Part shown: positions 25,948 to 53,811 of the stretch, piece after piece
Position numbering within the stretch: the first letter of the stretch is position 1
Layout: each line of letters starts with the position of its first letter
NCBI GenBank assembly: GCA_965202585.1
Contig: CBDBBG010000062.1
Span: 62,001-115,811, forward strand
Source of the DNA: Thalia democratica
Lineage: Eukaryota
DNA length: 53,811 nucleotides
Direction of reading: 5' to 3'
Notes under the pieces: model-generated
What the model was told of the DNA's origin: nothing
Databases searched by the model: none
What the model saw: only the letters and a program-made list of their open reading frames with translations
Program-made: the position numbers and the translations under genes

Positions 25948-26223
25948 GTTATTTGACAAAACAGTGCTCTATTATTGAATTAATAAATTTTCTGATCATC
26001 TTTATCTATAAATTTAGTGGTTTTTGGCCAGGCAAATCAGTTATCTGACAAAACAGTACTCTATTATTGAATTAATAAATTTTCTGATCATCTTTATCTA
26101 TAAATTTAGTGGTTTTTGGCCAGGCAAATCAGTTATCTGACAAAACAGTACTCTATTATTGAATTAATAAATTTTCTGATCATCTATATCTAAAAATTTA
26201 GTGGTTTTGGCCAGGCAAATCAG
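25948..26223. repeat. Tandem repeat, 92 bp x 3
   Basis: gacaaaacagt starts at 25955, 26047 and 26139. Confidence 0.95.
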
Positions 26224-30356: not shown

Positions 30357-30972
30357 TAATTCTGTGAACAGAAAGTAAACAAATAAAAAAAATATATTGT
30401 TTTGTAACTGTAGCAATCGTTTTGATGGCTTATTTAATTCTACTTAAAAAAATTTTTCTAGCTGTTAGCCTATAATAATTTAATAAAGGAAAATAGTGAA
30501 AAATTAAAGCTGGTGTTGAACTATTAAAATAAACAACACATTCTAGTTTCTAATATATTTTGAATTAACATAAAACAAAAAAACAGTTGAATTAATAGTT
30601 TAAAATTCCTTAAGATATATATTTTTGAACAATAATTTAATCAAGTTAGAAAATAAAATTGAGTTTAAGAACATTTTCCATGAAAAACTTGAAGTCATTT
30701 CAAATAGAGACCTCAAATCTATACTCTTTTAAAACCAAAAAATTCTTTTTTGAAATAAAAACTTAAATGGTTATCAAGTTTTTTTTTAATTTATACAGAT
30801 TAAACAAGTAATAACAGAAATCTGTCAAATAAATGTCTTTCAAACAAATGTTTTAATTACTATGCTATAAAAAACTTTAAGTGTAATATAAAACGACAAA
30901 TATAAACTACAAACTTAACCAGTTCAAAATAAAACTACTAACAACTTTAAAACATAAACCATTTAATAAATA

Positions 30973-31288: not shown

Positions 31289-31879
31289 TAATTAATTTTT
31301 ATTAGGCATTATGCAAACTTGTTGTAGAATAAATAACTTAGTAACAGTTGTTATGAAAAGATTACTCAAATATGATACAAACCAGGTTAAGTAAAAAATT
31401 ATTTTAAAAGATCAGATAAAATAGAAAAAACTTTCATAAAACAGTGTCTGCTACTGAAGTCTAATATAATGTGAAGGATGAGGTTAATAAATGCTAGCAT
31501 GTTTTTCTAATCTGACTCTCAATTAGTAAACTAAAGTCTCAAGTCACCTCCTTTACAAATATCTAGACTAGATCTTTTGCTGAAGATGTTGATAACTGAA
31601 CTGAAAGCTTTCTCAATAACAAAGCTAGACGGAAAAGCTATAAACAATAATCTAAATTCCTCTCAAATAGTTTGATACTTTTGCCTTAGTTTTGTTAAGT
31701 CCAAAAGCTTTTATATCATTCTTTGGAAAAATTTACTTTAAGTTAAAAGTCTGTTTATAAGTCTAAGAAGGTTTTCTGTAAGTCGTTTACTTCAAAAAGA
31801 TCTGCCTCGAAGGGATCTATGTTTTTATCTAAATAATAGTATTTTAGTGTCAAGTCGAAATTTTACTACTTAGTATGTT

Positions 31880-31964
31880 AAAATTCTTAAAAATTCCAGA
31901 TTTTTTGTCGCCTAAATTTTCAAATTCCAGGTTTTTTATGTTTCTAGGTAAATTGGCAACCCTG
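31880..31964. mobile_element. Right end of a CAGGGTTGCCA-terminus element
   Basis: aaattccag repeats ending ttggcaaccctg. Confidence 0.55.
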
Positions 31965-33262
31965 TTTAGTTTTATTTCTTAGTCTAACTTAGTGACTTAT
32001 CAAAACAAATTGGATATATCATGATGTGATAAATAATAATAGATAACATAGACTTTTACAAACCATTTATGATCCCAAATAACATATATGTCAGGTTTAA
32101 AATGGTGAGAGGGATTTCGATCGTTTATGATCTATGTAATTGTTATATAAGAAAATATATGAAAGAAAATATGAAATTTACTTAAAAGTAGGAGTCATAA
32201 GCACTTCATTTTTTCTATATTTTACATAAACAAAATAAACTTTTTTGTTTAAGTTTTACTTAAGAGTCAAATATTTAAATAGCAAGCTAAAATTAGTAAA
32301 ATATCAATATATAAAATAAAAATTTTATGACAGCCAAAAATTTTAAAATCGCCCCCTTTTCGCCCCCTTACAAATTATCGCCCCTCGACTTACTAAAATC
32401 GCCCCCAGGGGGGCGATATCGCCCACTTTGGGAAACCTTGTTTAGACAGTGTAATAAGTAGTAACTATGTAACTGGTAGTTTTACATGCAAAATGCCTAA
32501 ACTATTTCTAGTACCTTTTTAATCTGAAAGTTTTTTGGTCAACTCTAGATCGTTTTTTTTTATGAATAAACTGTTTACTACTGATACATTATTAATTTAA
32601 ATAGAGCAAAAGCACAAGTTAAATCTTATTAAGCTCATTCATTGGTCAAACTAGGGAAGTTCCCGATTTGAGATGCGTTTACCAAGGCACGCTTGAATGT
32701 TACCTTATATTACTTCAATTTATATCTATACTTCTTAAAAGCCAGAAACAATCCGGGTTGCAAATTTTCTATGCATAAAGTTTTAGTAAATCTAGCGGTC
32801 GTTGTTGCTGTACGAGGCTGCTTAAGGGTAAGTAAGATAAAAGATAGAAGAGTTTAAAAAACATCTTAGATTACTAACTAAGTGGGAATGACATTTACTG
32901 TCTACCTAAAAAGTGAAAAATAAAAAGATTGAGTGAATTCTACAAAAGCTAGGCTAAAATTACAAGTGATAACAATACGGATGAACAAGACTATAACTAA
33001 TAATCATTATAAGAAATTAAGACAACAAACAATGAACCAAACTCAGCACGCATAATAACTTACGATACTTTAGTTGCAAATAAAAAAAAAACTTTTATAA
33101 AAGCATTGAAACGAGTTTGACTCTTTGTAATAAAACAGTTTTGATATAATATACATACCTAGAAAAACTTAAAAGCGTTTTTCTTACTGCTTTAGCTTAT
33201 TTTCGTATCTTTTAAATCTATTTAGCGTTTATAACTAATATGCTTTCTTACATGATTCCGAC

Positions 33263-33757
33263 ATGAATACAGATGAAGAATCTGAAGATGAAGATCAATT
33301 CGCGAAGTATTATGACGTGTACACAAAGCATGAAGAAAGTATTGCGGAAGAAGGTAAAGTCTCAATGGAAGACATATATGATAGATTCGAAAATCCCAAA
33401 GTTGCTGCTGAAGACAAAGATGATGATGAAAAGATGGAAGTAGATGAGATCGCGAAAAGACCGGCTGGATTCATGGAGCGATTGTTTTTGAAAAAAGCGT
33501 GGTAAAGTATTGAGAGAGTCTCGTACTGTCTGATGCAATCCTGCATATACGCCTACAATATCACTGATGAAACTCAAAAGATAAACTTTAAAATAATTAC
33601 CGATTACTTGCAGTTCTCTGTTGAAAATCTCAGTGAGTTTTTGGAAAACGACGTCCACAAGTTGTCTGATGAAAAGAAAAGAAGGGAGATGAATGGAGCT
33701 GTTGACTTTTGTGAAAACCGTCGCAAAGCCATCATTGAGTATATCAAAGAGAATTAA
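33263..33757 (+). pseudogene. ARIH1-like: Intronless stand-alone Ariadne domain (ARIH-type RBR ligase C-terminal domain), one in-frame TAA at 33503-33505
   Basis: ORFs 33263-33505 and 33533-33757 are in the same frame. FAKYYDVYTKHEESI...ERLFLKKAW*SIERVSYCLMQSCIYAY...LQFSVENLSEFLENDV...FCENRRKAIIEYIKE aligns by eye with ARIH1 YLFYCNRYMNHMQSL...[27 protein letters not shown]...LENATEVLSGYLERDI...YCESRRRVLLQHVHE. Confidence 0.72.
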
Positions 33758-35690
33758 TATTGCAATTTATAGAAAATTTACTGCAATCGTTTAGTGCTTT
33801 CCAGAACCAATGATTTTAGTGCTGAATAAACTAGTGTATTTTAATTTGCTCAGTGTTATATGTTAATTAAATTTTTAAACTAAAAAAAGAAAATACTTTA
33901 CACTAAAGTTATATGATTAATAAAAGTAAAACTTAATTTATTCATAGTTTCGAATTCCAAATAACTGTGATTATATTAATTAGATAAAAATTTATATAAC
34001 CAAATATTGTTATTATTAAACACTGCCCTTCCGAAAAGTAACAACCCTTTTCTTCGAAAAAGTCAAAATCGCGCTGAATAGTAAAAAAGATGAAATACCT
34101 AAAATTGTAAGGGAATATATTTCTATATTTTTAAAACTATAATTAATAAAGCTTAAAGTTTATAAAATTTTAATCAAACTTACTAAAAATAAAGGAAATA
34201 AATTATAATAATTTCTATAGCTATCTAAAATTGTTTTACACTAGAATATAATGCTTTTAAAATATTTCATGGTAAAATAAAATAAAAAAAGTTGTTTTAG
34301 TGTTTAAACAGACCTTAGTTATCTAACATTTTCTTTATATGAAAACATGATTAACTTATTTAAATACAAAATTTACAATCTTGAAACATGGTATACAACG
34401 GCTAAAACTGGACAGAGTTTATAAATAAAGAACTATATTTTTTTATAAAACTTAATTACTGTAGAGGGCCAAAAAAAACCCATCTCCAACTTTTGCAACA
34501 ATACTGAAAAAAGTTTTACAGTAAAAGTAGCAGTAAACTTTAATAATACTTTTTTTACAAACCAATTAATAAGAAACCATTTTTCTGAGAGAAAAGTGGC
34601 TTTTTTCTATAGGTTGATTTTCTTGTTTAAAAGTAACTCAATTTTGATTTTAAAAAAAACGGAATTTTTTATCGAGTGAGAAACTAATATTCATTTGTCT
34701 AGTTTTCCGAGTACTTTGAAAATCTTAATTGCATAAAGTGTGTTACATCATAATCAATCTAATTTTTGTCATTATACACATAGTTTTACATTTCTTTATT
34801 TTTGAACAAAGAATATTAAGGATATGTCAATTGTCAACTAAACTAAAACTTTTACAACTTGAATTGAATGTAAATACCATAACCTGGTGATAAATTAAAT
34901 TTAAGTCAAATTATAATAAAAATTATAGATATAAAATCACGCAGACTTATTCTTTAACTAAGTACTAAAACGAATACAAACAAAATACGTAATTAAAGCA
35001 AATAATCCAGTGTTTATTAGATTTTTCAAATTTTGACATAACCTAGCAGTAAAAAATACTATAGTTTTTCAATTTCGAGTTTTAATAAAACAAAGAGTAA
35101 AGATTTTAAATCATCTATGGATTTTTAAACCGCTCTGCTTTTAAAAGTAAGTTTAAATATAAATTCGAGATATTTTACACTGGAAATGAAAGGTTTATTA
35201 AAACTTTACGAAAGTAAAAGCTAAAAAAAATATTTAGAATAAAAATAAGAAGTTAATTTAAATAAATGTTTGAAAAACTCTTGTTATAAGCTGAATGTAC
35301 GAAAGCTTCTTTAATAATTATTTCTTTAGAATTTTATATATGAGGTTTTTCTTAAAATAGATAAAGTTCTGTATAATTATAATTTTTAATTGTAACTAAT
35401 AAATAACATTGTTAAGTATAACTGCTTGTAAGCTTGTTTTGTTTTTTATAACGTCCATTCATTTTCCATTTAAATATAATTGCATTAAAACTAATTGCTT
35501 TACACTTATGAACGATTATTTGTGATATACTAAGTTTAGTTTCGTTTATTTTTAGGTATAATACAAAACTAACGTTAAAGTACTTAAAACTTTGAAAATA
35601 TAAAACGACTACAGTTGAAATAGAGTTGCGAATTGCTTAAAATTTATTCATTTTCATTCAGTAAACTCTCATTGAAAATAAGCATAAAGT

Positions 35691-35920
35691 CAAAGGTTTT
35701 ACAAAGTGGGCGAGATCGTCCTCCTGGGAACGATTTTAGTAAGTTGGGGGGGGGGGGGGGGCAGGAACTAGTTAAGGGGCAAAAGGGGGAGAAAATTTAA
35801 ATTTTTTGGCGGTTAAAAAAAAAGTCTTTGGTGTTTTAAGTGGTAGTCTTGTTGGAGGGGTCAATAGCCTATTTTATTTCATCAAAGGAGGCAATTAAAA
35901 AAAAAGTTTGGGAAACACTG
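35691..35920. mobile_element. hAT MITE of the same family as the 28866-32440 ends
   Basis: caaagtgggcga.atcg..c.cctggg..cgattttagtaagt is the reverse complement of about 32385-32432; right end gtttgggaaacactg; candidate TSD ataaagtc / atctagtc. Confidence 0.75.
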
Positions 35921-37369
35921 ATCTAGTCGAACTTTGAGTTTTAATGCATATAAGAAAAAACACCAAATTCTAAACTTTTCAAAAGTTGATTGGAAATGCA
36001 CTTTTTTAAAATCAAATAGTTACACTTTAACAGTTTACCTTTTCTCAGTTCACAAACTGTTTTACATTTCTCTAAAATTGACACAAAAGTTTTACATATT
36101 TATAGAAGCTTGCAGCTAAAACTTATTAATATGTAAAACACATTCCAGTTATTTAAATTTCCAAATATTATTTGTATACAAAAAAGTACCTTTGCCAACA
36201 GAACAAATTTGCATAATATTAAATAAAATTAAGTACCACAGTAACTAATTATTCATATACATATTGAAGATGGACAATATTAAGTTAATAGTTGTTTGAA
36301 TGATTTAAATTTAAAATAACTAGATCTAATTTAATAGCACTAAATTAATTGCTCATTCTTGTTTTCAACTCACTTAAGCTTATTTAAGTAATTAAGGATA
36401 GTTTATGTTTTTCAAAAATCATAGGCATTGTTTATGATACACTTTATTTTTGTGCTAAGACCAAGAGTTCTGAATGAATACCATAAAGCAATATTTCTGC
36501 TAATAATTATAAAAACTCTTTTGAAGTCGTATTTAATTTTTTGTTGATCCAAAAAGTACTCATGAGTCATGACATCACAATAAGTTGATTTGGCTATGAA
36601 TCTTGAATTTGTCAAAACTGTTAAACTACAGCTAAAAACAATTCTCTAAATATAGCTGTTTTTATTTAAGTATTTTATATTTTAAAAATTATTTAATAAG
36701 ATTTACGAGTTCTTAATGCTTTTGTAATTTTTAAACTTATTTGAAGCTAGATTTTGTCACTAATGCTCCATTTTCGCTTAAAAGAGCCTGTAATAATTAA
36801 AACTGTATTTATACTGCAAAAAGAAAATACTAGTTTTTTTTTCTTAATATATTCAACCAAATTTTATTAAATACAAAAACCCTTCTCATACAATTATGTC
36901 CTGCACTTCTATACTTGAAAATCTGTTAATTTGTTGATAACTCTCAAGACTGATTAAATGACCAATTAACAGATAATTTTGTACTTTAATAATTAGTCAG
37001 ACTGGAAAATTCTGTTGTGGATCTTTGGAGCATCTCTATTGATTTGGATCTAATCTTCTGGTTGGTGGCTTAAAACTATTTTCATACTAAAATAAAATAA
37101 AATCTATTTCTTTATGATTTTATACTATAAACTTGAATAATTGATAATTTTAACATATAATGTAGTCTAAAACTATTTTCAAATAAAAAAACATTTTTCT
37201 TAAAATTATAATAAAAACTTAAATGTTTGATAATTTCAACATATAATGTTGTTTGAAATTGTTTTCATACTAAAAAGTTTTGACAAAAATTAAAAATATT
37301 TCTTTTTGAAGATAAGCTAAGAGTTTTATTAATTAATAATGTTTATCATACAAGCAGCTACAGTATTAT

Positions 37370-37712
37370 CAGGTTTGCCACAAAATTTGGAATCCTGGAA
37401 AAACCTGAGAATTTGAAAAAAAAGGAAAGACCTAGAATTTAAAACAAAATTTACATGTTAGATAAGTATTAAAAAGTAATTTTGACACCAAATATCTTTC
37501 AAAATGATAAAAATGCTTTGTCATCATCAAATTTTTTTTTGTTCATGGACATAGTTGAAATAGCTTTTACAGTAACTTTTTAATGTTGTTATAACACTTA
37601 ACACAGTTTTTAACTTAAAACTATAAATAGACCAAAAAGCGTGTACTTTCAAAAACCTGGAAGAAAATCAGAAAACCTGCAAGAAATTTTTCAAAAACCA
37701 ATCACAACCTTA
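37370..37712. mobile_element. CAGGGTTGCCA-terminus non-autonomous element
   Basis: Starts caggtttgccac...cctggaaaaacctg; internal sequence resembles 39440-39830 and about 23060-23230. Confidence 0.6.
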
Positions 37713-38430
37713 TATTATAATAAAACTTAGTTTCAGTTACAATTTAGTTTAATTTTTTTAGAGTTTGTATTTAATGTATACTGATAATTTGTTGAGGGCA
37801 AAGGAAGGGGTGAATCGGTTATAAAAAAACTATTCCTCCTACAATTTTTAAGCAATAAATTTTCAAATTTTCAAGTTTCATCTATTAAACAAATAATTAG
37901 ATGGATTTTAAAATATCTGATAGTAATAGCTACTAGATATTAAAAATCCATATTATTTTAATGCCATTAATTTAATTGAAATAAAAAGCTTACTATTTAA
38001 AAAAACTTCTGAAAATTTGAGGACTTCAACTTTATTAACTAAGAAAAAAATATTATCCCTCTATTTTTCTTTTTTCATCAGGAATCTATTGAATATTTAA
38101 ATTTTAATCCTCTTAATCTCTCAAGTTACTCAAAAATTAAATAAAAAAAGGAGATTTCTAAATAAATGAAAACAAAGTAGTATACTTCTGAACATAAACA
38201 TATTTTTAGTTGAAAATTTAAAAATTGCTTGAGATGAACTTTTTAAAAGATTAAACTGATTTTTTAATTGCTTCAAAATTGGATTAGGGGTAGGTTTTTA
38301 ATATCGCTATTTATTTCATTTGTAGTCAACAAAAAAGCTCTGAAACTCTTAAAACTTGATCATTTATATTGAAAAAATAAAATTAATTTAAGTGGCAGTC
38401 ATTTTACTAAGATAAATAATAGAGAATTAA

Positions 38431-39025
38431 GGGCATAGGGGGGGGGTAAACACCCTTTTTTGGTTTTTGGTCTTATTTTATATAGTTTTTACAAAGCTAC
38501 AAAATGCTTTTTAAAGATTTAAAAATTTCAAAATAAATTTTGAGATATAGCCCGTCAAAGTCGAAGGCAACAATAGGAACCTTATGGGAGGCGCAAACTA
38601 AAACGGCAAATAACTAGAAATCACTAAAAATCTATCTTCTCCTACGTTTTTTGAGATAACTACCTCAAATTTTCAGGAAATGTTCCTTGCAATATTTAGA
38701 AAATTCTGTCGGAACAGATTTTAAAAAAATCAAAAAATAAAAATTTTATAACAAAAAAACTAAAAAAAAACTGTTTTTTTTTGTTTATTTTTTATATAAA
38801 GTTTTTATTTTTCAATTTTATCAAAAATCAATAGTGAAATAGTCTATTTTTGCAGTTTTAGTTTTGGCCTCACATAAGGAACCTATTGTTGGTTCCTACT
38901 TTGACTGGCTATATCTAAAAAACTATTTTGAATTTTTAAATCTGTAAAAAGCATTTTGTAGCTTAGCAAAAACTATATAAAATAAGATCAAAAACCAAAA
39001 AAGGGTGTTTACCCCCCCTATGCCC
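38431..39025. mobile_element. Kolobok-like non-autonomous element with long TIRs
   Basis: About 200-bp imperfect inverted repeats starting gggcataggggggg and ending ccccccctatgccc; TTAA on both flanks; purine termini fit Kolobok rather than piggyBac (CC termini). Confidence 0.8.
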
Positions 39026-39439
39026 TTAAGTATTTTATGGCCCTCTAATGGCCTTGATGTATAAGTTTCTCCTCCAAGGTATTACTATAAGTTGAGACTG
39101 ACGATAAGAAACAATCTAACAGTATAAATAAGTGATGTACTTATGCTTAACTGTTTATTCAAAATAAAAAGAAATTATTAATAAGCCTTGTACCTCTCCC
39201 AATGACCAGCGAAATAAAGCCCCTTTAGCCAACAGTTTTTTCCCAGACAAACAATAACTGTTAAGAAAGGAGGGTAATCCTAGTAAGTTTTGAAAAATAT
39301 TCAGTTAACTGAGAGAATTAATAAACATTTCATTAAACATGAAGATTTTACAACAAAGAAGCAGTTGATATGAAAAATGTTAAAAAGGAAATTAATATAA
39401 ATGGTAAATTGACTGAAAAATAAGAAGATAGATTTAAAT

Positions 39440-39830
39440 CAGGGTTGCCAAAAAACCTGAAATCCAGGAATTTTAGAAGTTTTGAACAAAAGTCACTAAA
39501 AAACCTGGAATTAATTTGATCAAAATCACTAAAAAACCTTTGAAAAACCATATGTAGTTTTAACCACTTTTACATATAAGTAGTAAAATTCCAACTTTAC
39601 ACAAAAAGTAAGTCTAATGTATAGATAAGTTTTTTTGTCATCATCAATAGTTTTTTTGTTAAAAGACACATTTGAAGTAGTCTTACAGTATGTTTTTAAT
39701 GTATTAACATTATTTAACTCTGTTTTTACCTTAAACTTAACTTAAAATTAACAATAGAACCTAAAACGTGTTATTGTTTAGTTCTGGAAGAAAAATTGAA
39801 AGTCAGGGAAAAATTGCCAAAAATATTTGG
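39440..39830. mobile_element. CAGGGTTGCCA-terminus non-autonomous element
   Basis: Starts cagggttgccaaaaaacctgaaatccagg; homologous to 37370-37712. Confidence 0.6.
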
Positions 39831-40084: not shown

Positions 40085-40451
40085 GGTTGAAATGAAGGCC
40101 TTGCAAAAGGTCAACTGGCAAGGGCAGATTGTCAACTTCTGAATGATAAACCTGAATTCAGTGGATTCTGTTTGGTGTGTTTTCTTGAGCGGTATTTTTT
40201 AATTGATTCTTGACACAAAATTAAAAGAATTTATATAAAACCTAAAGGGTGTGATATTGTAATAAGTGAAAATTTTATTAAACTAAATATAAGTAGTTTT
40301 AATGTTTGCAGGAGTTAAGTTGATATATTTATACTTGAGCATATTTAAAGTATATATTTTATTTCATACAGTTCATGACCACATTTACTGATGACATGGC
40401 TTGCAAAGATTGAAAATTTGGGGTTTGTGCACAAATATGAGAACTGGCAAG
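40085..40451 (+). other. Two exon-like segments (40085-40191 and 40372-40451)
   Basis: tttttag and tttcatacag acceptors, gtattt and gtaaga donors, GC-richer than flanks; the phase-compatible join has two in-frame TGA codons. Confidence 0.4.
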
Positions 40452-41069
40452 GTAAGACTTACCAAAATAATTGTTTTCAAACTAATTATTATTTGATAAT
40501 TCAATTGATTTGATAATTGTTAATATTAAATTCAAAAAATATCTTCTTAGTAAAACCAAGCTAAGCCATATTAAAGAATTAAACAAATAATTTATATAAG
40601 CTTTAGCATGTATAACTGAATGGTGTAACAAAACATTATATAAAAAGCATGATTATAACCTAATTTTATCTACTGGACTAGATACATTTTATGTTCTAAG
40701 TTTGCATCTAGCCAAGGAATTTCTTAATTTTGTTAACAACTAGTCATGCTACTTGTATAAGTACATACCATTCAAAATATTAAATATTACTTACTTCATT
40801 CAAACTTTGTCTTGCATTCTAATATGTCTGTATGGATATTAATATTGAATTTATTTATTTCAAAGTCAACAACGTTTCACCCAACAGGGTTCCCCAAGCC
40901 TGCAAAATAAAAAAATAAGAAGATGAATAACTTAAGAAAAGTTTTTAAATAGCAATTTTACAAGTAATGATATCTTTTATACAGTTTTAGATGTAGCTTA
41001 TAACAACACAAATCAAAATTGGCATTTAACAAACAAAAGAAAAATGAAATTTAATAAGCATAAACAAAA

Positions 41070-41420
41070 TTAACAGCCATAAATACGATAAGTTTTAAAG
41101 TAGAATTTCTTAAAGTGTGGACAGATGTAGAAAAGATTTTGTCTTTTATTTAAGTTTTGTTTTTTGTCAGCAAGTGCTATCTCAAATTTTTCCAGGTTGC
41201 AGGTTTTACAGATCTTTAAATCTCCAATCTTATGCATAATCTTCCCATCTAAGTTCGTTTCTGCGTACCATCTCTTTTTTATTAGGCCAACCGTGGATCC
41301 TATGTACTCCTTGGTTTCGTCTGAGTAGTGATTGTTGCCTTGTATACCACATTCTCCCACAAACACTTATTTAATGGGCAGGAATCTTTGTTGCGGGAGT
41401 TGCACATACTATTCTCTTGA
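41070..41420 (-). mobile_element. PLE GIY-YIG endonuclease slice
   Basis: Minus ORF KEYIGSTVGLIKKRWY...KTCNL-EKFEIALADKKQNLNKR...CPH, preceded in another frame by SCPLNKCLWENVVYKATI. Confidence 0.85.
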
Positions 41421-41679
41421 TCTTTTCTTATTCATTTTACTTAGTACCTTTTTGTTGTATCAACTAATTAATGATTTGACATTTTCCATACAACGGTAGG
41501 ATACTTTGCAGCTGTTTCTGTTTAAAATTTTCATGCTCTTATTTTTAAATGTTTATAAATTAAAATCAAGATTTTTTCCCAATGTTAGTTTTAACTGATT
41601 GGCAGTATGGGGGTTTAAACAATATAAGTTCTTTGAGAAAAAGTTATAAAAAACAGACCATTGTTAGCTTGAATGTACT

Positions 41680-41990
41680 TTTAAATTTCTTTCAAAATAT
41701 TTGCATTGTACTCAGTAGCTTTGTTCACTAAATCTATTGATAATGATGGATACAAATTTACGACATAAACTGTACTTAAAGAACAGTTTATATCATCACA
41801 TGACTTTTTCCAGGTTTCCAAGTCTTCTAAACAACTTTTTGAGTCTTTACAATATTCATTTATTCCATTTTCGCAATAAATAACACTAATCGGTTCCAAT
41901 ATTAAGTTCAGTACAGCTGTCAACCTACTTGGATATGTATTACCAGCGGCTTGGACTAATCTTGTTGGGATATCTTTAATACTGCAAGTT
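41680..41990 (-). mobile_element. PLE reverse transcriptase slice
   Basis: Minus frame IPTRLVQAAGNTYPSRLTAVLNLILEPI...TVYVVNLYPSLSID. Confidence 0.75.
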
Positions 41991-43384
41991 TTCAGATTAT
42001 CTTGATTTAATTAGTGAGTTTTTCAATTATATACCAAATTCTAACAATCTGTGATCAAGTGTTCTATTAAACCAAAAGCAATATATAACACACAGTAACT
42101 CAACTTATATTAACTGATAACACAAATCAAAGCAAACGTATATACTCTTTAGCGCCAAATTACAAATTAGTGTTGTAAAAATTTTAATGTATTCTAAAAT
42201 GGTTTAACAGGTTTTGCTACAAATTGTAAACAAAACATAAAGTTATCAGCAGGTACGTTTACAAAAAGTTTTGTTTTGTTTTTTGTTATCAATTGAAGCT
42301 TTAGCGGTGTTCACCGAGTTACTGTGATTTATTTTCAACAAATTGTTGGAAAAAAGTGCAGTAATTCTCGTACCAACCGTTTTTCTCGCGCTGATGGCAT
42401 TCTTCAAAGCCTCTCCCAGTATTTTTATTTTTCTTTTCTCAAAATTTCTACACTGTCAAAAACTGATGGACTACTTGCCAGGATAGTACTCGTTCTTCTA
42501 GTACTTAAAGTTGGGAACAACAGAAGTATTGTTACTTCCTTTGGAAGTTTTTGTGCTGTTCTCCTTAACATTAGAAAATGGCTCTCTTCAATTTTTTACA
42601 AATAATTGCTGTTAATAAACTGGTATAATTTTTGATGTGTGATTACACTTACCTGTCCGAACAGCTAATTTAAAAAGTTCTTGAAAAAATCCTTTTTGTG
42701 CTTAACTAAACTAAAATTTTGTAGAATATTCTACTCATGTCACTGTTTAAGTGGTTGGCGACAACATAGTTTTTACTTATGTAGTCCCATGACCGCAATC
42801 TTCATAGAACTTAAGCTTTTTGTTGCTTTCTGAACTAATGTAATTTTGCATGTCAACTACAAATTAAAAGTTGTTTTTCAGAATTTTTGGCACACAACTG
42901 TACATTACCTTACAATTTTTTACCATAAATAAATGTCTCTTGTAAAAACTATAATAAGGCTTAACATTTAAATTTTGATTAGGACTATCAGATTTCCGAC
43001 TATTTTTTTAACTTCATTTCTTTATCATGTTTGAATATAGTTTTTTTTTTTTACTATTAACACTACTAATATTTATTGAATTATTCTTCTTATTGAATAA
43101 TTTATGCTGTGGTGACTTGATCATTGAACAATTAGTGAAACTAATCACTTATATAAAATCAAAGCACTGCCAATTCTATGCACTAAAAACTAGTTAAATG
43201 TTGAAAAAAATTAGGTTTTAAAACAAAATGTCATAAAAAAATACTATGTAATTTTAAAATTGTATTTCTTGATTTGAAAATTTTTAAAGTTTATAACTTG
43301 TAGTAATCAAAACAATGTATGTAAAAATAATATATAAAACTTTACTATTACTAAGTAAACAAAAAAATAATAAACTTTCTTACC

Positions 43385-43830
43385 TATAAAATTTGTGCAT
43401 TCATCTATGTGAAATGAGCAAGATTTCATTGATAGGTCGCTCATAAGTTTTTTTTTTTTCAAATTGGTCCAAGCGTGTTTATCACGACCATAGTTGCTCC
43501 AAGTATTTTCATGACATCTATCAGGTGGTTGCTTCCATTCATGTTTCCATGAAGAGCTTGCTGCGAGGCTAGCTTGACTTCCGTCTGACGTTTGTTTTTC
43601 TTGAGATAGTCATCCAACTGGATTTTGAAGATTTTCTTATCCTTAATTTGACTTGATAAACTGTTTTTGAATTGTTCAACTTTTTATTGTCATCGTCAGT
43701 TTTTTTTTTTCCACAATCAAAACATACGTTTCTATCTTCTACTGAGTTCGATGGCCCATCGCATAGTAAAATATCAAATGTGACTTCTTGTCTGTACTTT
43801 GTAGAGTTTTTTAAATTCTCAAATGCTTAG
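43385..43830 (-). pseudogene. Unidentified exon relic; 43720-43820 is duplicated at 9815-9915
   Basis: Minus frame NSTKYRQEVTFDILLCDGPSNSVEDRNVCFDCGKK...; ends at a gtaag donor at about 43384. Confidence 0.45.
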
Positions 43831-44549
43831 CCTTGCCATTTTTCATTAGTTGCTGAATTAAATAATAATTGAAAGCTTTATATATGTATATATTTTTTTG
43901 GTTTATAATTAATATGAGTAGAAGGCTCACTTTGACAATAGCTAATTCTGCGTCATTGATTCTATCCTCAAGCAAGTAATTTTGATCAAATAATTTTTCT
44001 TTTGTTTTTGATGCATACTAGATTACCTATATATTTCTTTCTTTCTTCGTGGGTTCTTTGTTTTCAAAAGGTTTGTAAAATGTTGCAAAACTTGAAGCGT
44101 AAATAATATTTTTAGTTCAGCAAACAAACTTTTGGCAACATAAATATTGAATTTAAATTGAGTGATAAATGACTTACAACTAATATTGGAATTCTGCCCT
44201 TACCAGAAAGATAATTTTTGGTCTTAAGCATTGAGATTATTTTTTCTAGTAGCTTCTCAATATATTTTTGTTCTCAATTTGTTTTTTCATAAACAGCTAT
44301 GACACATGTATCTAAAAAATTATTTTTGAAGGTTGCTTATCGAAAAGAATAAACTATAACTTAATTAAGTTATATCAAAGTTGTAATTAACCTGAATTTT
44401 TAAAGTTTTTCAGAAAATGTTCTGTAACTATTGGCGTCACTTTATTTGGGTTCTTAGTTTTAATGCCTTATTATTATGTCACATTGAGTATTTACACTAG
44501 CAATAACTGTCAATCCTTCACATTTCCACAAATGCTCTCTCTGAAAGTT

Positions 44550-45720
44550 GTTTAGTTTTTATTTGAGTTTCTAATAAGTTCATGTGGCCACATCTTGAGG
44601 ATAGTTGTCCTCACCCATGATAGTGTAGGTGTGAATTTCAGGGAACCTCTTTCCTCCTGAGGTCTACCTGATTCTTCCATGTGAAGATTGATGGTGTAGG
44701 TGTAAACTTCAAGGTAACTTCTTTCCCCCTGAGGTCTAGTTGATTCCTTCATTTTACTCAGTGAAGGGTAGATCTTATGAGTCCTACTTTTATCACCTAC
44801 ACTTAAATTACTTATAACACAATCGAATAGAGTTAATAGCAATATGAAAATTTACAAAATGTTTGAGATATTTTTATCCGAAAATAGATTAACATTAAAT
44901 TTGAATTTTGCAAACTATTTACTTCTTAAAATCACTAAACAGACATTCACGTATTTTAAGTCAAGTTGGTTACCCATGAGTTTTTTAACGCCTTGCTGGA
45001 ATTAATCCTAAATTGTTTAAATGCCATTAGTCGCCCCGTACATATGTCTCTCCGCTTTGCAGTTGACTTCTAAAGTTTTTAGACATTTTTTCTTTTTACC
45101 ATTTCTGAGTTTACCGAGACAAGTGTTGTTCTTGTCACGGAAGACAAGGGTTCTGAATCAGCAGGGTTGGGTCCAATGGCTTTTAAACTTTGCATTGAAC
45201 ATATCAACAGTGGCCATAAGCTTCAAAAGTTACTGTTTGGTTTCAAACTGTCCACTCATCTGGATTGAAGTCACTGGTCTCTTCTATAGTCAGACCTTAT
45301 TGCGCCAACTATTGTCCAGCGATATGTACCAAATATGGTGAGCATGATTGCAATGTCCCACTTACCCTCTTTTTTGTCAGTTAGAACCTTTGGTTGCCTC
45401 TCTGTTCGACTTTCTTTGATTCTAAATGAATCGAGAGGAGTCATATTATGCTCTTTCCCATTGTCAGAGACGACTACCCGTGGTGTTACAAAACAACTGC
45501 ACCGACTCTGTACAAATGCAATCACTGGCATTGCCTTCTTGTCCGGTATGGGAGTTGCCACAAGAAACCCCGTTCCTTGGTCTTTTATTGTCAGTATGTA
45601 ACGGCAGTTGTTAGAAACTACGTTCATAGGGCCTTCAAGGTCAATATGCCAAAGTTTAATCTTTGGGCCTTCTATGGAAGAACAAAATTACATAATGAAA
45701 ACAATGGTAGGTAAATTAAA
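44550..45720 (-). mobile_element. Gypsy/Ty3 integrase relic and pol C-terminus
   Basis: Minus frame WHIDLEGPMNVVSNNCRYILTIKDQGTGFLVATPIPDK...PRVVVSDNGKE (first two acidic residues of DDE); RPQxER-type repeats near 44620-44740; no LTR seen. Confidence 0.88.
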
Positions 45721-46098
45721 CTTAAATTTAGTAAATAAAGATTTCAAATAAAATTTTGTGAAATGTCTACATTTTCCTACCAATTCTGATCTCAAATTTT
45801 AAAGTTTTGTTGTTGTCTGCAAATTCAATTTTAAGTCTCTCCAAATTGCAGAGGTGCAAATTTTACTAGGTTTATTTTGGTTACTGTGATGAATAATCTA
45901 CCAATTTATTTTTTCTCCAATCAACATTGTCATTTTTGATTTTGGGATACCTAGAGCATATTTTTCTCAAACGACAATACATGCTTTTTAATTCTCAAAT
46001 ATTCTGAAGAATCTTACTGGGTCATCTGCAACCTTTCTAAATTCTCTTCGGGAACTGAAAATTTGTTCCATTCTTTCAAGTTGGGTAATATTTTTTCT

Positions 46099-46260
46099 AA
46101 GTAGTACATGCTCGTGCCTTGGGATAACACCAGAGAGTAGAGCATCATTTTTGCTACAATCTTTAGTAACTAATTGAAAAGTAGTACATGCTCGTGCCTC
46201 GGGATAACACTAGAGAGTAGAGCATCATTTTTGCTACAATATTTAGTAAGTAAATGAAAA
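46099..46260. repeat. Tandem duplication, 80 bp x 2
   Basis: gtagtacatgctcgtgcc starts at 46101 and 46181. Confidence 0.95.
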
Positions 46261-46412
46261 GGTTCAAGAAGGTTTAGTACCTGACATACCAATTGCCACT
46301 CTTTTTCTGTAATGATAAGAGCTTGCAAATGGCTAGCTTCATAGTTCTGGACACTAGTTTTAATGTAACTAATTTTAACACTAAAATTAATGTGCCCTTA
46401 TAGTAATGTTTT

Positions 46413-46806
46413 TTAAAGTGGGTGTTTTAAGAAATTTTGTAGCACAAACGTCCATTGCCTAGTTGTAATTATTTTACACCTATTCCATTTACTTTAAAGC
46501 TTTAGATGTCTGTTTCACATCTATTGCTAGACAGTAATCATACTGTTAAAGTGGGTGTCTTTAAAATTTTGTAGCACAATTGTCCATTACTTAGTTGTAA
46601 TTGTTTTACACCCATTCCATTTACTTAAAAGCTTAAGATGTCTGTTTCAACATCTGTTGCTAGACAGTAATCACACTTTTAAAGTGGGTGTCTTTAAAAT
46701 TTTGTAGCACAATCGTATATTGCCTAGTTGCAATTATTTCACACCTATTCCATTTACTTAAAAGCTTGAGGTGTCTGTTTCAACATCTTTTGCTGGACAG
46801 TAATCG
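46413..46806. repeat. Tandem repeat, 133 bp x 3
   Basis: gtgggtgt starts at 46418, 46551 and 46684. Confidence 0.95.
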
Positions 46807-47989
46807 TAATAATCATACAGTAATACATAATTGTCAGCTGTTTAATATTCTATCAGTCAATCTCTTTAAATAGATTTTTTAGATCTTTTCTTAAGTTTTG
46901 TTGAAATTTGGTCATGAATCTATTGAATTTCACGTTGCTAATCATGTCAAATACGTCTTTTTCAAATCCTATAATTCGTTGCAAAATGAGGCTGATTTAG
47001 AATTTTAAAATATGCCATGCCAATGCTGTCTCTCTTGTTAGAAAGCGTTAAGAAATAAATGATGATACAGCATGTTTAAAAAAGTATTGTGGAATGTTTT
47101 CTGGTGTTCTAATGATTTTATCATATAAAAGATTAGTTGAATTACTTATGTCATTTGATTAAAACCATTTTTTATTTTATAATTTGACTCCATCTTCTAA
47201 GTGGGCAAGGTTGTTTGATAGTGGGCAAAATTTATTTGTAAAAAAAATGTTTTATATAGATTGAGCTCAACTGTAGTCAAATTGTGTTCTAATACTATTT
47301 ACTGCTTGTATATCACGTCTTGTAAAAGGCATCTTGTTAAATATTATCTGTTAATACCATATTATGTTTTTAAAACCCCGCATTCTGAATGCTAAAATCT
47401 TCAGAACTGTTTGTTCGCACTCTCTGCTGTATTTTTTCTCTAACATATTTCTACAAAAAAAAAGATTCCTAAATAATGAGTTATTTAAAACGTTCATTAC
47501 ATTGAGGACAATATGAATTACATATAAGCCACCTCAGATGCAACTTTTACAAAAAATATGATAACAGCTCAATTTCATAACTGTGCTTGTATAGCATTAA
47601 AATTTTCACGGCAATAATGCATATATTCATTAAATAATTTTTCACTAGCGTTGAAAGAACAGAAACCGTTTAAGGTTGAAATGTTAACATCAAATGTAAC
47701 TTAATCTAAATATATATTTGTTTAAACAGCGTAAAAAACCGGACTTATTTTTAAACTTATTTGAATAAATAAAGTAACTTTAATTCGTTGTTTTCTAATA
47801 TATTTCATCAGTTTTCAGGCGTAGTTCACCAGCTTAACCAATTTATTTGTACCAAGTTCCATCAGACAATGCTGTATCGGTTCATAGTGGCTTGTTCTGT
47901 TGAAAATATTTCTGTTGTGTTGCGTTCTTCTTAAGCAAGAACAGTTAAAATAACTTAAAGTTAAATAAGTAAAAACTATTCAAGCAAGT

Positions 47990-48880
47990 TTTCAAAACAC
48001 TTAGGCTTTTCTTGATCTACGTTAAACTTTTTGTAAAGTTCAATCAGCATGGTGCTGTGTGGAAACAGTCGCTTCCTGCGGACTTGAAAATTTCCAATCT
48101 TGTTCTTGACACAATTTAAGGAATTCTCGTGTCCATCAAGTCAATGTCAAACTTCAGGATCAGTGGTCTATTCTTCGTGCTCCGTCATTGTTAAGTATGA
48201 CAACGAAGTTGTTCTGTTTTGTGGTTTTGAGATACTGACTGCCTTACTTAACACAATTTTGTTCTGAGTGACGTCATACTGTGTATTTTTTGATGAATTT
48301 ATTGTTGTTCTTCTTTTTGGTATCTTTTGATCCAAAACTTTTTCCATCATATCCGTCCAGAGATCTCTTTCAAAGTATGGATTTCTGTGACCGAACAGAT
48401 TTCATCATTCTGCTCTTGATATCCTTTTATCAAGCCACGATTTTCTCCTTGTTCCAACCCTTTTTTGTACCAGAAGTTAAGCCTTTGTTGATCTGGTACC
48501 TTTTAGCTCGGTAATGTTAAACAAGTAATCGTCACTTTCTTTGGAGGACACGACCATATATGCCCAAAACGGTATCCTAGTCTGCCGCAATATTTAAAAT
48601 ATCCAAGTATAAGCTCCATGTAAACCTCGGAGCGTATCCGATCATCAATTATTTTAACGGAGTCCAGGTAGCCTATGTAGACCTGTCGTTGTTGGCGATC
48701 CGCAGTCTTTGTACTCTTGAGAGTAAAGTCCGAAAAAAGCAAATTTCCTTGCCATCTTTTCTTGAAATGCATAAAAAGCTCTTGCTCTGTATTTAATTTC
48801 TTCGGGGAAAGCTTCTTTAAATCTTGTTTTCATGTTCTCCTTCACTTTTAGATGCTTTATTTGTTGTAATTAACTTTTAA
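47990..48880 (-). pseudogene. CREBBP-like: Intronless p300/CBP-type histone acetyltransferase (KAT11) domain, frameshifted
   Basis: Stitched minus frames: MKTRF..FPEEIKYRARAFYAFQE-DGKEICFFGLYSQEY...RQVYIGYLDSV...IRSEVYMELILGYFKYCGRLGYRFGHIWSCPP-DDYLF-PDQQRLNFWYKKGL...PYFERDLW...LMDTR-EFLKLCQEQDWKFSS...ST-MLIELY. This is collinear with p300 FPYRTKALFAFEEIDGVDLCFFGMHVQEY...RVYISYLDSV...HIWACPP..DDYIF...RLQEWYKKML...PYFEGDFW...LMDGRDAFL...EFSS...STMCMLVELH. At least seven frameshifts. Confidence 0.93.
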
Positions 48881-49132
48881 AACATACCAACTTTTAAACT
48901 AAAATCTAATAAAATGTTAGCCATTAAAACAGCTATAACAAAATGAAAATGTATGAAAGTAAATTTTGCTTTACTTAAAAATTGCTTGTTAAACTGCATT
49001 GTAACAAAAGCTAACACTAAATTGCCTAGTAAAACTGCTCTACATAATAATGAAATACATATAAACACACTGATTTACTTTAAAAACATTTGCGGGTAGA
49101 AAAGCTTGAACTCTGCCATTGACAATTATTCT

Positions 49133-49270
49133 TGAACATTATAATTTATGTCTTTATAGAGGCTAGTCTTTCCAACCTCCTCTATCATGCTTTCAGTAAA
49201 TGGAAAATTTCGGCAACAAAATCCCATGACTTTGCAAGTTGATCTGACAATATTAAAATTCAATTGTAGA
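49133..49270. repeat. Block duplicated at about 18660-18790
   Basis: aacattat...tgtctttata...ctagtctttccaac...ctatcat...gcaacaaa.tcc.atg.acttgcaagtt.atctgacaata.taaaattcaattgt occurs in both copies. Confidence 0.75.
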
Positions 49271-49389
49271 ATACTGCTTTTCAATTTTATAGCTTTTCCT
49301 CGTCATAAGTATATATATATTTTTTTAATTGTTTAACAAGTTGATCATTTTATGTAGTCCTTAGCAGTTTTCTTAGTTTTTATATAGTT

Positions 49390-49710
49390 AAACTCTGTAA
49401 AGATAACTATACTTATACTTATTGCTTAAAAAAGACACCAGCCAAGGGTGTAAGCAATTTAGTAGTTGGAAACAGGACGTCTGGTTAGGGAGAAAATGAA
49501 TTTTTTAATAAAAATAAAGTTGTTTAAAAAATAAGATGATCAAGTATTTTTATAGAAATTTTATGTTTAAAGATTCTGCAAAGCTAACTGTCAAAGAAAT
49601 TGTTCTATTATTTGAAGGGTTGTATTGCTACCTTTTTTGTGTATTGGTATTACAAATAAAGATTCAAAAGAGTATCTAAAACTATTCTAACGCAAATTTA
49701 TGAGAGATCC
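49390..49710 (-). mobile_element. CR1/L2 RT slice, paralog of 21430-21750
   Basis: Nucleotide homology over about 320 bp including ccttttttgtgtattggtat (PIHKKG). Confidence 0.85.
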
Positions 49711-50059
49711 CAAAGAATTAAAACAATACACTAAAATTAAATAAAACTTTAAGTAAGCAATAAACTGTAAAAGGTTTAATAAACTTTCAAGCATGTAAAT
49801 CTGGCTAGTTCTAATAGTAACCATATTTTCACCATTTTGTTTTTTAATTGCTTAATGTAATAATCTTACCAAGAACTGTGCACATTTGAAATCAGTGTCA
49901 GTCAGTTGCTTGAAATCTCCATTTAAAATTTATTTTTTGAAGGTTTTCCCATTTGATTAACTTTCAACAACATATAATTTTTATATTATTATTGCAGTTT
50001 CATTAAACTTTCTTTGGCAGTTTACTTACAATACGTACTTTTACTCTGATATTTTCGAA

Positions 50060-50535
50060 CATAGCTTTTATGTTCCTGGAGAACTTCTCTGACGTCTTTT
50101 TAACATATGGTAATGTAATGTTTGTTATCATCTGTATTTCCATTTAGTTCTGACTCAAAGTTGTTTTCTTTGTATCTGGTCATCGATAAACTTGGTATTT
50201 TCGCCACTTGTTATTTTGTAGATCTTCTGAGACAAGATTTTTGATTCTGTAATACAGATTTTTAACTAATTTCTCTTCCACGACCGCAGTACACTTGAGT
50301 TATAGTTCATAAGCACACCCGCGCTTGTTGGTTTTTTATATATTGATGTTATGATCTTATTGTATTTATTGCCACCTTTGATCAAGATATGGGAGTTTAC
50401 CTTCTTGACAAGTTTGAATTACAAATTTCATATTTTTTGTGCATTTGTTAAGTATTTCACAACTGATGTATATGTTCTCTGTTTTCGAAAATGCAGAAAA
50501 TGTCGTCAACATATCTGCAATACATTTAAGGCCTT
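50060..50535 (-). mobile_element. PLE reverse transcriptase slice
   Basis: Minus frames YCRYVDDIFCIFEN, GKLPYLD and KPTSAGVLMNYNS; its 5' side is cut by the satellite. Confidence 0.85.
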
Positions 50536-50539
50536 ATAA

Positions 50540-53500
50540 TTTGGTTAAGTAATTCTTTCAACCGTTCATACGGCAATGATGATTTTACTTCTTGGCTTGT
50601 AGTTTGGTCAAGTAATTCTGTCAACCGTTCACACAGCAATGATGATTTTACTTCTTGGCTTGTAGTTTGGTTAAGTAATTCTGTCAACTGTTCACACGGC
50701 AATGATGATTTTACTTATTGGTTTGTAGTTTTGGGTTAAGTAATTCTGTCAAACTGTTCACACGGCAATGATGATTTTACTTATTGGCTTGTAGTTTGGT
50801 TAAGAAATTCTGTTAACCGTTCATACGGCAATGATGATTTTACTTCTTGGCTTGTAGTTTGGTTAAGTAATTCTGTCAACCGTTCATACGGCAATGATGA
50901 TTTTACTTCTTAGCTTGTAGTTTGGTTAAGTAATTCTGTTAACCGTTCACACGGCAATGATGATTTTACTTCTTGGCTTGTAGTTTGGTTAAGTAATTCT
51001 GTCAACTGTTCACACGGCAATGATGATTTTACTTCTTGGCTTGTAGTTTGGTTAAGTAATTCTGTCAACTGTTCACACGGCAATGATGATTTTACTTATG
51101 GCTTGTAGTTTGGTTAAGTAATTCTGTCAACTGTTCATACGGCAATGATGATTTTACTTCTTGGCTTGTAGTTTGGTTAAGTAATTCTGTTAACCGTTCA
51201 CACGGCAATGATGAATTTACTTCTTGGCTTGTAGTTTGGTTAAGTAATTCTGTTAACCGTTCACACGGCAATGATGATTTTACTTCTTAGCTTGTAGTTT
51301 GGTTAAGTAATTCTGTTAACTGTTCACACGGCAATGATGAATTTACTTATTGGTTTGTAGTTTGGTTAAGTAATTCTGTTAACTGTTCATACGGCAATGA
51401 TGATTTTACTTCTTGGCTTGTAGTTTGGTTAAGTAATTCTGTCAGCCGTTCATACGGCAATGATGATTTTACTTCTTGGCTTGTAGTTTGGTTAAGTAAT
51501 TCTGTCAACTGTTCATACGGCAATGATGATTTTACTTCTTAGCTTGTAGTTTGGTTAAGTAATTCTGTCAACTGTTCACACGGCAATGATGATTTTACTT
51601 CTTGGCTTGTAGTTTGGTTAAGTAATTCTGTCAACTGTTACACGGCAATGATGATTTTACTTCTTAGCTTGTAGTTTGGTTAAGTAATTCTGTTAACCGT
51701 TCACACGGCAATGATGAATTTACTTCTTGGCTTGTAGTTTGGTTAAGTAATTCTGTTAACCGTTCACACGGCAATGATGAATTTACTTCTTGGCTTGTAG
51801 TTTGGTTAAGTAATTCTGTCAACTGTTCACACGGCAATGATGATTTTACTTATGGCTTGTAGTTTGGTTAAGTAATTCTGTCAACCGTTCATACGGCAAT
51901 GATGATTTTACTTCTTGGCTTGTAGTTTGGTTAAGTAATTCTGTCAACCGTTCACACGGCAATGATGATTTTACTTCTTGGCTTGTAGTTTGGTTAAGTA
52001 ATTCTGTCAACTGTTCATACGGCAATGATGATTTTACTTCTTGGCTTGTAGTTTGGTTAAGTAATTCTGTTAACCGTTCATACGGCAATGATGAATTTAC
52101 TTATTGGCTTGTAGTTTGGTTAAGTAATTCTGTTAACCGTTCACACGGCAATGATGAATTTACTTCTTAGCTTGTAGTTTGGTTAAGTAATTCTGTTAAC
52201 TGTTCACACGGCAATGATGAATTTACTTATTGGTTTGTAGTTTTGGTTAAGTAATTCTGTCAACCGTTCATACGGCAATGATGATTTTACTTCTTAGCTT
52301 GTAGTTTGGTTAAGTAATTCTGTTAACTGTTCACACGGCAATGATGATTTTACTTCTTGGCTTGTAGTTTGGTTAAGTAATTCTGTCAACCGTTCACACG
52401 GCAATGATGATTTTACTTCTTGCTTGTAGTTTGGTTAAGTAATTCTGTTAACCGTTCACACGGCAATGATGATTTTACTTCTTGGCTTGTAGTTTGGTTA
52501 AGTAATTCTGTTAACCGTTCACACGGCAATGATGATTTTACTTCTTGGCTTGTAGTTTGGTTAAGTAATTCTGTTAACCGTTCACACGGCAATGATGATT
52601 TTACTTCTTAGCTTGTAGTTTGGTTAAGTAATTCTGTTAACTGTTCACACGGCAATGATGATTTTACTTCTTAGCTTGTAGTTTGGTTAAGTAATTTTTT
52701 AACTGTTCACACGGCAATGATGAATTTACTTATTGGTTTGTAGTTTGGTTAAGTAATTCTGTCAACCGTTCATACGGCAATGATGAATTTACTTCTTAGC
52801 TTGTAGTTTGGTTAAGTAATTCTGTTAACTGTTCACACGGCAATGAGGAATTTACTTCTTGGCTTGTAGTTTGGTTAAGTAATTCTGTCAACCGTTCATA
52901 CGGCAATAATGATTTTACTTCTTGGCTTGTAGTTTGGTTAAGTAATTCTGTCAACCGTTCACACGGCAATGATGATTTTACTTCTTGGCTTGTAGTTTGG
53001 TTAAGTAATTCTGTCAACTGTTCAAACGGCAATAATGAATTTACTTATTGGTTTGTAGTTTGGTTAAGTAATTCTGTTAACCGTTCACACGGCAATGATG
53101 AATTTACTTCTTGGCTTGTAGTTTGGTTAAGTAATTCTGTCAACTGTTCACACGGCAATGATGATTTTACTTATTGGCTTGTAGTTTGGTTAAGTAATTC
53201 TGTCAACTGTTCATACGGCAATGATGATTTACTTCTTAGCTTGTAGTTTGGTTAAGTAATTCTGTCAACTGTTCACACGGCAATGATGATTTTACTTCTT
53301 GGCTTGTAGTTTGGTTAAGTAATTCTGTCAACTGTTCACACGGCAATAATGATTTTACTTCTTAGCTTGTAGTTTGGTTAAGTAATTCTGTCAACTGTTC
53401 ACACGGCAATGATGAATTTACTTATTGGTTTGTAGTTTGGTTAAGTAATTCTGTCAACTGTTCACACGGCAATGATGATTTTACTTCTTGGCTTGTAGTT

Positions 53501-53811
53501 TGGTTAAGTAATTCTGTCAACTGTTCACACGGCAATAATGATTTTACTTCTTAGCTTGTAGTTTGGTTAAGTAATTCTGTTAACTGTTCACACGGCAATG
53601 ATGAATTTACTTATTGGTTTGTAGTTTGGTTAAGTAATTCTGTTAACTGTTCACACGGCAATGATGAATTTACTTCTTGGCTTGTAGTTTGGTTAAGTAA
53701 TTCTGTCAACTGTTACACGGCAATGATGATTTTACTTCTTAGCTTGTAGTTGGTTAAGTAATTCTGTTAACCGTTCACACGGCAATGATGAATTTACTTC
53801 TTGCTTGTAGT
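50540..53811. repeat. 63-bp satellite/minisatellite, about 52 units, running off the window end
   Basis: Unit ggttaagtaattctgt(c/t)aac(c/t)gttca(c/t)acggcaatgatga(t/a)tttactt(c/a)tt(g/a)g(c/t)ttgtagttt; 3272 bp / 63 is about 52; no spacers. Confidence 0.98.

Follow-up and report, generated by a model that had tools for sequence, protein, structure and literature searches.

A one-way mosaic of decayed transposon pieces in Thalia democratica, a probable unistrand piRNA-source locus partly paralogous to its neighbor

The 53,811-nt stretch of Thalia democratica DNA analyzed here (the window; assembly GCA_965202585.1, contig CBDBBG010000062.1, positions 62,001 to 115,811) carries two dense mosaics of decayed transposable element (TE) pieces. 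The second, block 2 (41050–50540, coding strand minus), also holds gene pieces and is the subject of this analysis. Its sister mosaic, block 1 (4600–25000), likewise on the minus strand, was recognized by scans, nucleotide skew and homology. The whole window is AT-rich, with a GC content of 20–36% per kb. Reading of the six frames showed short minus-strand coding pieces, ridden with stops and frameshifts, across all of block 2. The one-way mosaic of broken TE pieces in block 2 is a real feature. We interpreted it, with moderate confidence, as a unistrand antisense source of PIWI-interacting RNAs (piRNAs), active or ageing, that is separate from and partly paralogous to block 1; the predicted precursor strand is plus.

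Tools supported 14 pieces in block 2, ranging from 54 to 828 bp (median 165 bp) and covering 3339 of its 9491 bp (35%). These lengths are lower bounds, and five of the pieces (segments B, C, E, F and G, described below) were recognized solely by homology to block 1. All the element classes named in the original prediction were supported on the minus strand, with a strength that varied by class. The sensitivity of Pfam on such pieces is low: one of 147 open reading frames (ORFs) in block 1 was matched, and none of six long X-read frames. An Rfam search returned no matches, and a bacterial promoter scan, whose model is not meaningful here, stayed at the shuffle level.

The left end of block 2 is occupied by Penelope-like pieces (all pieces are on the minus strand unless marked otherwise). 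The predicted GIY-YIG piece was recovered as a C-terminus at 41097–41634, which reaches the ORF end and is internally deleted. It was detected by tblastn with protein P0156 (E 9e-22) and showed 84/211 identities to P0157. Pfam names neither protein, and the Penelope-like label of the piece and of both proteins is our assignment, made from motifs. Two Penelope-like reverse transcriptases (RTs) had also been predicted. The one at 50270–50540 contains a YVDD motif and gave a weak RVT_1 match (E 0.009, at 50361–50525). We take it to be Penelope-like, and decayed domains presumably follow downstream of it, possibly reaching ~49850. The other, at 41700–42010, is probably the N-terminal part of a Penelope-like RT. 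Neither Pfam nor the PDB search named it as an RT; its one support was that segment F within it (41717–41801) matches a block 1 segment in frame at 80% identity, and its class is assumed from motifs. A second Penelope-like C-terminal piece, overlooked in the original prediction, was found at 45748–45912 (score 95 versus a control maximum of 55). A possible N-terminal piece at 46850–47050 was matched by no tool, and we presume it to be Penelope-like from a motif.

The predicted CR1 RT was present at 49392–49711 (segment A), corresponding to residues ~463–545 of protein P0151 (tblastn E 1e-13). Another CR1 piece, previously overlooked, lies at 47054–47173 (P0151 residues 399–439, tblastn E 2e-6). 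In Pfam, P0151 has the architecture Exo_endo_phos plus RVT_1, that is, endonuclease and RT and nothing more; the name CR1 for pieces of this type is our assumption. The integrase that had been called Gypsy was supported as a DDE integrase core at 45274–45687, with a Pfam rve match (E 5.6e-5, at 45448–45657) below the curated cut-off. Its Gypsy-like nature is presumed: a PDB search of the integrase ORF gave noise or nothing and did not separate Gypsy from Ginger/Polinton. The predicted hAT transposase piece (45920–46400), which contains an 80-bp tandem duplication at 46099–46261, gave nothing with Pfam and PDB. The lead came from two ESM Atlas clusters matched by 46173–46397 (0.95–0.97), in which hAT/ZBED1 Pfam domains are carried by only 11–12% of the members; the extent of the piece outside this interval is presumed.

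The longest piece, at 48030–48857, is the predicted relic of a KAT11 (p300/CBP-type) acetyltransferase domain. It was matched by Pfam (E 1e-8) and by p300 structures in the PDB (E 4e-18). In a PDB search of three minus frames, and no plus frames, only p300/CBP was matched. Alignment to a CBP-type protein ran from residue 25 to ~355 with eight frameshifts and four stops, and without any insertion in the DNA. The frame is thus broken, and the alignment stops before the ZZ region, whereas a functional p300/CBP gene would have an intact frame flanked by bromo, PHD, ZZ and TAZ domains. Animal p300/CBP genes carry several introns over the KAT11 stretch. The relic has no intron-sized insertion over ~280 codons, which suggested a donor that was processed or intron-poor.

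A protein search with this divergent domain gave 496 matches among 1.84 billion proteins, and no intact parent of the lineage was among them. The best match, P0001, a 119-residue KAT11 fragment (E 4e-26, versus 1e-12 for the next), was identical to the relic at 106 of 119 positions (89%) when frameshifts were allowed, and ran into the same off-frame tail. This suggested that a sister dead copy exists, as paralog or ortholog. No homolog of the KAT11 ORF was returned by a word-index search. The best stretch of the relic is ~50% identical to p300, which makes targeting of the canonical host CBP unlikely. We take the relic to be a passenger whose source was a divergent paralog, intron-poor or retroposed; it is non-functional as an enzyme. 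Mammalian pachytene piRNA clusters contain antisense pseudogene pieces, and block 2 resembles them in having a dead gene copy antisense to the predicted precursor. No support was obtained for a viral source of the KAT11 relic: there was no phage match (eukaryotic viral collections were not searched), three further matches were ordinary CBP architectures, and the literature gave nothing relevant.

A RING-finger piece at ~47537–47590 (zf-RING_UBOX, E 0.00096) had been overlooked. In view of this match, an initial reading of 47550–47700 as part of a P element was dropped. The two exon-like pieces of the original prediction were present. One, at 44153–44459 (segment C), reads as exon, 80-nt GT-AG intron (44391–44312), exon and donor; the intron is deduced from splice motifs and frame, and no homolog was found. 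The other, at 43440–43824, includes segment E (43704–43824) and has a minus-strand donor motif at 43384; ESM Atlas on 43462–43683 was uninformative. Between these and the integrase lies an ORF of 99 codons (44550–44850, minus) that contains a two-fold repeat. Repeat scans found a 133-bp unit in three tandem copies (46411–46805) and a 63-bp satellite of 52 copies with 94% matches (50533–53811), which runs off the window. The satellite abuts the RT piece at 50270–50540, its first unit joining it directly. On the minus strand the unit is open over 21 codons, and the satellite may have arisen by expansion of a junction between fragments.

That all pieces lie on the minus strand, as originally claimed, was borne out by searches of both strands. 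Of 123 ORFs searched with Pfam, three matched at E<0.005, all of them minus. The best plus-strand match (E 0.0098) was treated as noise. In nine matched stretches examined at E 0.05, an RT or RING match was obtained in 2 of 27 minus frames and any match at all in 0 of 27 plus frames; one of the two minus frames also hit a herpes family at noise level. In a frameshift-aware scan with three reference proteins and four shuffled controls each, all clear peaks in the blocks were minus, five in block 2 and four in block 1. Strong peaks were followed by series of decreasing scores, which are alignment shadows and were not counted, and borderline minus peaks at 42795 and 5183 were left out. Minus-strand pieces had served as bait for the reference proteins, so that the loci used in this way do not count as independent tests. 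The independent loci in block 2 were minus in eight of eight cases (p = 0.008).

Self-comparison with nhmmer gave the same strand in 11 of 11 dispersed pairs between the blocks, in 2 of 4 pairs between block and middle, and in 2 of 4 within the middle; a reversed-sequence control gave no matches. In block 2, 36 of 47 windows had an excess of pyrimidines on the plus strand; the corresponding counts were 83 of 101 for block 1 and 25 of 80 for the middle (block 2 versus middle, p = 1e-8). The cumulative purine skew turned sharply at 41135. A pyrimidine excess was also seen in 23 of the 30 windows in the unannotated rest of block 2 (p = 0.005), which suggests further minus-strand debris. These strand and skew statistics argue against chance or an assembly artefact. 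The high density of indels could stem in part from unpolished long-read sequence. On the other hand, the pieces are unique and 13–23% diverged from their block 1 partners, and so are not collapsed copies. We regard this explanation as scarcely credible.

Such a bias might also arise in an intron or a long untranslated region of a plus-strand gene, where sense insertions would be purged through their effects on splicing or termination, with no small-RNA function. In agreement with this, the plus-strand donor motif GT(A/G)AG was low in block 2 (5 observed versus 11.8 +/- 3.0 expected), as one of 40 such tests. Orientation filters give partial bias, and no plus-strand coding exon was found among the 149 ORFs of the middle and flank. 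The dense packing, the lack of miniature inverted-repeat transposable elements (MITEs) and the dead pieces common to both blocks would also be left unexplained, and we give this filter little credence.

Comparison of the blocks revealed these common pieces, whose descent the original prediction had not seen. The blocks have seven TE-like segments in common, each in the same orientation in both, and six of them pass nhmmer. Segment A (21434–21751 in block 1, 49392–49711 in block 2) is the CR1 RT, 86–87% identical. Segment B (18663–18789 and 49135–49270; 77–83%) is presumably like a C-terminus of a long interspersed nuclear element (LINE). Segment C (17226–17530 and 44153–44459) is 82% identical, and segment D (16766–17107 and 41268–41626), which is Penelope-like, 60–67%. 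Segments E (9805–9923 and 43704–43824; 84–87%) and F (7890–7974 and 41717–41801; 80%) follow. Segment G (6192–6257 and 45002–45066; 77%) is out of the block 1 order, and its minus orientation is taken from same-strand homology only. Segments A, B, C, E and F keep one order in both blocks.

The manner of divergence separated these segments into groups. With the frames of B, C, E and of the internal pairs (h) set by hand, segments A, B and C together showed 9 synonymous versus 54 non-synonymous codon changes, as expected of neutral divergence after death. On the other hand, segment D and the internal pair h1 showed an excess of third-position changes (54%, p = 0.0005), which suggested that their copies diverged while the elements were still alive and entered the blocks independently. 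The third-position share in A, B, C, E and F together was 32% (Fisher p = 0.006 versus D and h1). Segments F (8 of 15 changes synonymous, p = 0.013) and E (5 of 11) were intermediate. Both copies of segment A start at the same 5' base, have lost ~9 codons including a WK motif that is present in P0151–P0153, and carry a frameshift at P0151 residue 488. This common breakpoint, lost motif and frameshift, together with the neutral divergence of three segments, suggested that pieces already dead were duplicated or copied. The apparent intron of segment C was kept in both block copies, which suggested that at least this segment arrived as DNA.

The resemblance is limited in extent. Only ~1 kb of the 9.5 kb of block 2 is common with block 1. 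Between segments B and C, block 2 has 4.7 kb with about eight pieces and block 1 has 1.1 kb of other sequence. This suggested heavy turnover since the copying, or piecemeal copying. Within block 1, four further same-strand pairs (h3–h6), two in reversed order, showed neutral divergence (35% third position).

These re-copies, same-strand, non-collinear and neutrally diverged, would also be expected if short fragments were taken up in a fixed polarity, by repair or RT template switching at a transcribed locus, including from sister loci; such a locus would still be a piRNA source. The blocks might then be compact modular cassettes of anti-transposon memory, with fragments of any TE class, and of sister cassettes, written in a fixed orientation instead of whole elements being trapped and then eroded, a loose eukaryotic parallel to spacer acquisition. 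The shortness of the pieces, the lack of any plus-strand piece found (versus 67–79% antisense in the flamenco cluster) and the intronless KAT11 agree with directional uptake. On the other hand, the intron in segment C indicates that not all pieces came through spliced RNA, and two of the three Penelope-like pieces reach the ORF end with internal deletions, as insertion followed by erosion predicts. The supported lengths, as lower bounds, may make the pieces look shorter than they are. We consider directional uptake unlikely, and the notion of memory cassettes unlikely to the same degree.

Somewhat less likely still is that a capturing mobile element, a Helitron or Pack-type, gathered fragments in its own orientation, the blocks being diverged members of one family without a piRNA role. 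It would account for the dead pieces in partly the same order, for DNA-level capture with an intron, and for the satellite and tandem repeats in or beside block 2. Short captured fragments lined up in a train, in part with introns, are likewise a feature of Helitron and Pack-TYPE capture (PMC3288121). A Helitron-type hairpin-CTAG end lies at 5335 (minus), close to the left edge of block 1. It is the single match in the window, which equals the shuffle rate of 0–2 per window, and no hairpin-CTRR end was found at block 2. Around block 2, terminal matches amounted to 8–9 AT-rich bases, with no pair of terminal inverted repeats (TIRs) and no target-site duplication beyond that. The cargo is mostly other TEs. 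Pfam scans, insensitive here, found no RepHel domain. Moreover, the ends of the blocks have no mutual homology, and ~1 kb in common is little for members of one family.

The ~16 kb between the blocks differ from them in kind, as had been claimed: the GC content is lower, the skew is for the most part reversed, MITEs are intact, and relics lie on either strand. The frameshift-aware scan gave one plus peak (25460) and one minus peak (27381) there. The purine skew is reversed from ~28.6 kb (28650) to 41.1 kb (41135), where acceptor-like motifs are also more numerous on the minus strand. Plus-strand AATAAA occurs at 3.9/kb in the middle versus 1.8–1.9/kb in the blocks. Intact MITE-like elements with TIRs lie in the flank and middle (910–1245, 29996–30359 and 38424–39032); the scan found none inside block 2, and in block 1 one unexplained short pair (16919–17290). 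None of 149 ORFs of the middle and flank matched Pfam, a weak negative in view of its low sensitivity here.

The original prediction had left room for block 2 as a continuation of the block 1 precursor. In that case one plus-strand precursor would span both blocks, and the middle would be either removed by splicing or read through. The common polarity agrees with this. So does a candidate short non-coding exon on the plus strand (40372–40451, weak), just upstream of block 2, whose acceptor and donor imply an upstream exon. The splice scores were ad hoc and gave six plus candidates, of which this is one, and eight minus candidates in 50 kb. By the same scores, a plus donor lies at 4426, ahead of block 1, and just one strong plus donor lies within block 2. 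On the other hand, the reversed skew, the doubled density of plus-strand AATAAA, the MITEs and the relics on both strands make read-through of the middle difficult. The candidate minus-strand exons at 40899–40795 and 39977–39965, with the reversed skew over 28.6–41.1 kb, may reflect leftward transcription of an intron-rich minus transcript. A single precursor would survive only with the middle spliced out, and we think it very unlikely. A second, separate piRNA-cluster unit, as the prediction also proposed, remained the best fit to the anatomy, its function being inferred.

Other features were observed in the middle. Further MITE-related copies occur at 31820–32570, 35550–36040, 37360–37700 and 39430–39830. 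In a GC-richer patch, two adjacent plus-strand ORFs (33239–33505 and 33506–33757) had no Pfam match of note; the second presumably resembles an Ariadne-type RBR C-terminus. To the right of block 1 lie a CR1 C-terminal piece (25362–25460, plus) and a LINE-tail-like piece (25754–25839, plus), opposite to their relatives at 9363–9802 and 16504–16587, and a 92-bp unit in three tandem copies with 97% matches (25947–26225).

The anatomy was compared with known clusters. Unistrand piRNA clusters in general yield phased, PIWI-bound 1U small RNAs of 24–32 nt from one strand, out of one precursor whose promoter lies at one end, often with a short spliced 5' exon. In having TE fragments antisense to one direction, block 2 matches unistrand clusters. 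It resembles flamenco and flam-like clusters in its one-strand bias and in locus duplication with little synteny (PMC10643416; PMC10495008), flamenco itself having been duplicated with loss of synteny (PMC10495008). Those clusters span hundreds of kb, are driven by Gypsy, are 67–79% antisense and contain full-length elements and a conserved promoter. In contrast, block 2 spans 9.5 kb, bounded within the window by the skew switch and the satellite. It has one integrase piece among 14, without the Gypsy bias by which PMC10643416 defines flam-like clusters, no full-length element, no plus-strand piece found and no shared promoter. The unistrand clusters of the slug Arion vulgaris, where TE fragments are densely packed on the strand opposite to the piRNAs (PMC11615739), are similar in anatomy; their piRNA output was measured, whereas that of block 2 is predicted. 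In Nematostella, 402 of 457 clusters are unistrand (PMC5731801). In Hydra, most clusters are one-strand and the 1U reads come from non-coding regions that are unique (PMC3592418), while 68–85% of antisense piRNAs mismatch their targets (PMC7161359). Block 2 is like these in being one-strand, and its diverged fragments would give mismatched piRNAs from seemingly unique DNA. We found no published description of this fragment-level anatomy in a search that did not include Lim et al. 2014 or Grimson et al. 2008, either of which may have reported clusters of antisense TE pieces in cnidarians.

LINE, Penelope-like, integrase-bearing, hAT and gene-like dead pieces, all minus and some common with block 1, are what led us to the reading of block 2 as a unistrand piRNA source. 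While anatomy and descent were observed directly, transcription, piRNA output and selection are proposed. A plus-strand RNA polymerase II transcript starting from ~40–41 kb would read every piece antisense. This precursor would be cut into primary piRNAs starting with U, which would guide PIWI slicing of matching TE families and start ping-pong amplification. In the proposed history, insertions or copies would land in the locus, selection would retain the antisense ones, and deletion would grind the pieces to 50–800 bp. Duplication or piecemeal copying would then spread them among sister loci, and the result would be a compact library directed at many TE classes.

Several observations weigh against this reading. 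Annotation is lacking for 65% of block 2. The pyrimidine skew is accounted for by the bias of the donor coding sequences and is uninformative on transcription. Plus-strand AATAAA is not depleted in block 2 beyond composition (17 observed versus 13.1 +/- 3.4 expected). The collinearity of the blocks is weak (p = 0.09 for five of the seven segments and 0.036 with six segments), and the p = 0.008 for five was obtained with segments chosen after the fact. Segment F, and perhaps also E, look like independent captures. The common frameshift of segment A sits in a T run and could have had two separate origins. The pieces are old, with ~50–60% amino-acid identity to the nearest CR1 found, and their piRNAs may therefore no longer match active elements. 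Finally, no similarity was found between the 5' flanks of the blocks or between their right ends, unlike the duplicated promoter of flamenco; part of one flank is hidden by a scaffold gap, an N run of ~100 bases at 3828–3927 just upstream of block 1.

How antisense TE sequence is gained and renewed in piRNA clusters is an open question, studied mainly in flies and mammals. The common lesions and the codon-position signal separate pieces that were copied from those acquired independently. Since the two can be separated, trapping followed by erosion and directional acquisition can be tested against each other by comparison of strains. If confirmed, block 2 would represent a type of cluster that covers all TE classes in ~10–20 kb and in which the copying of dead pieces from one neighbor to another can be measured.

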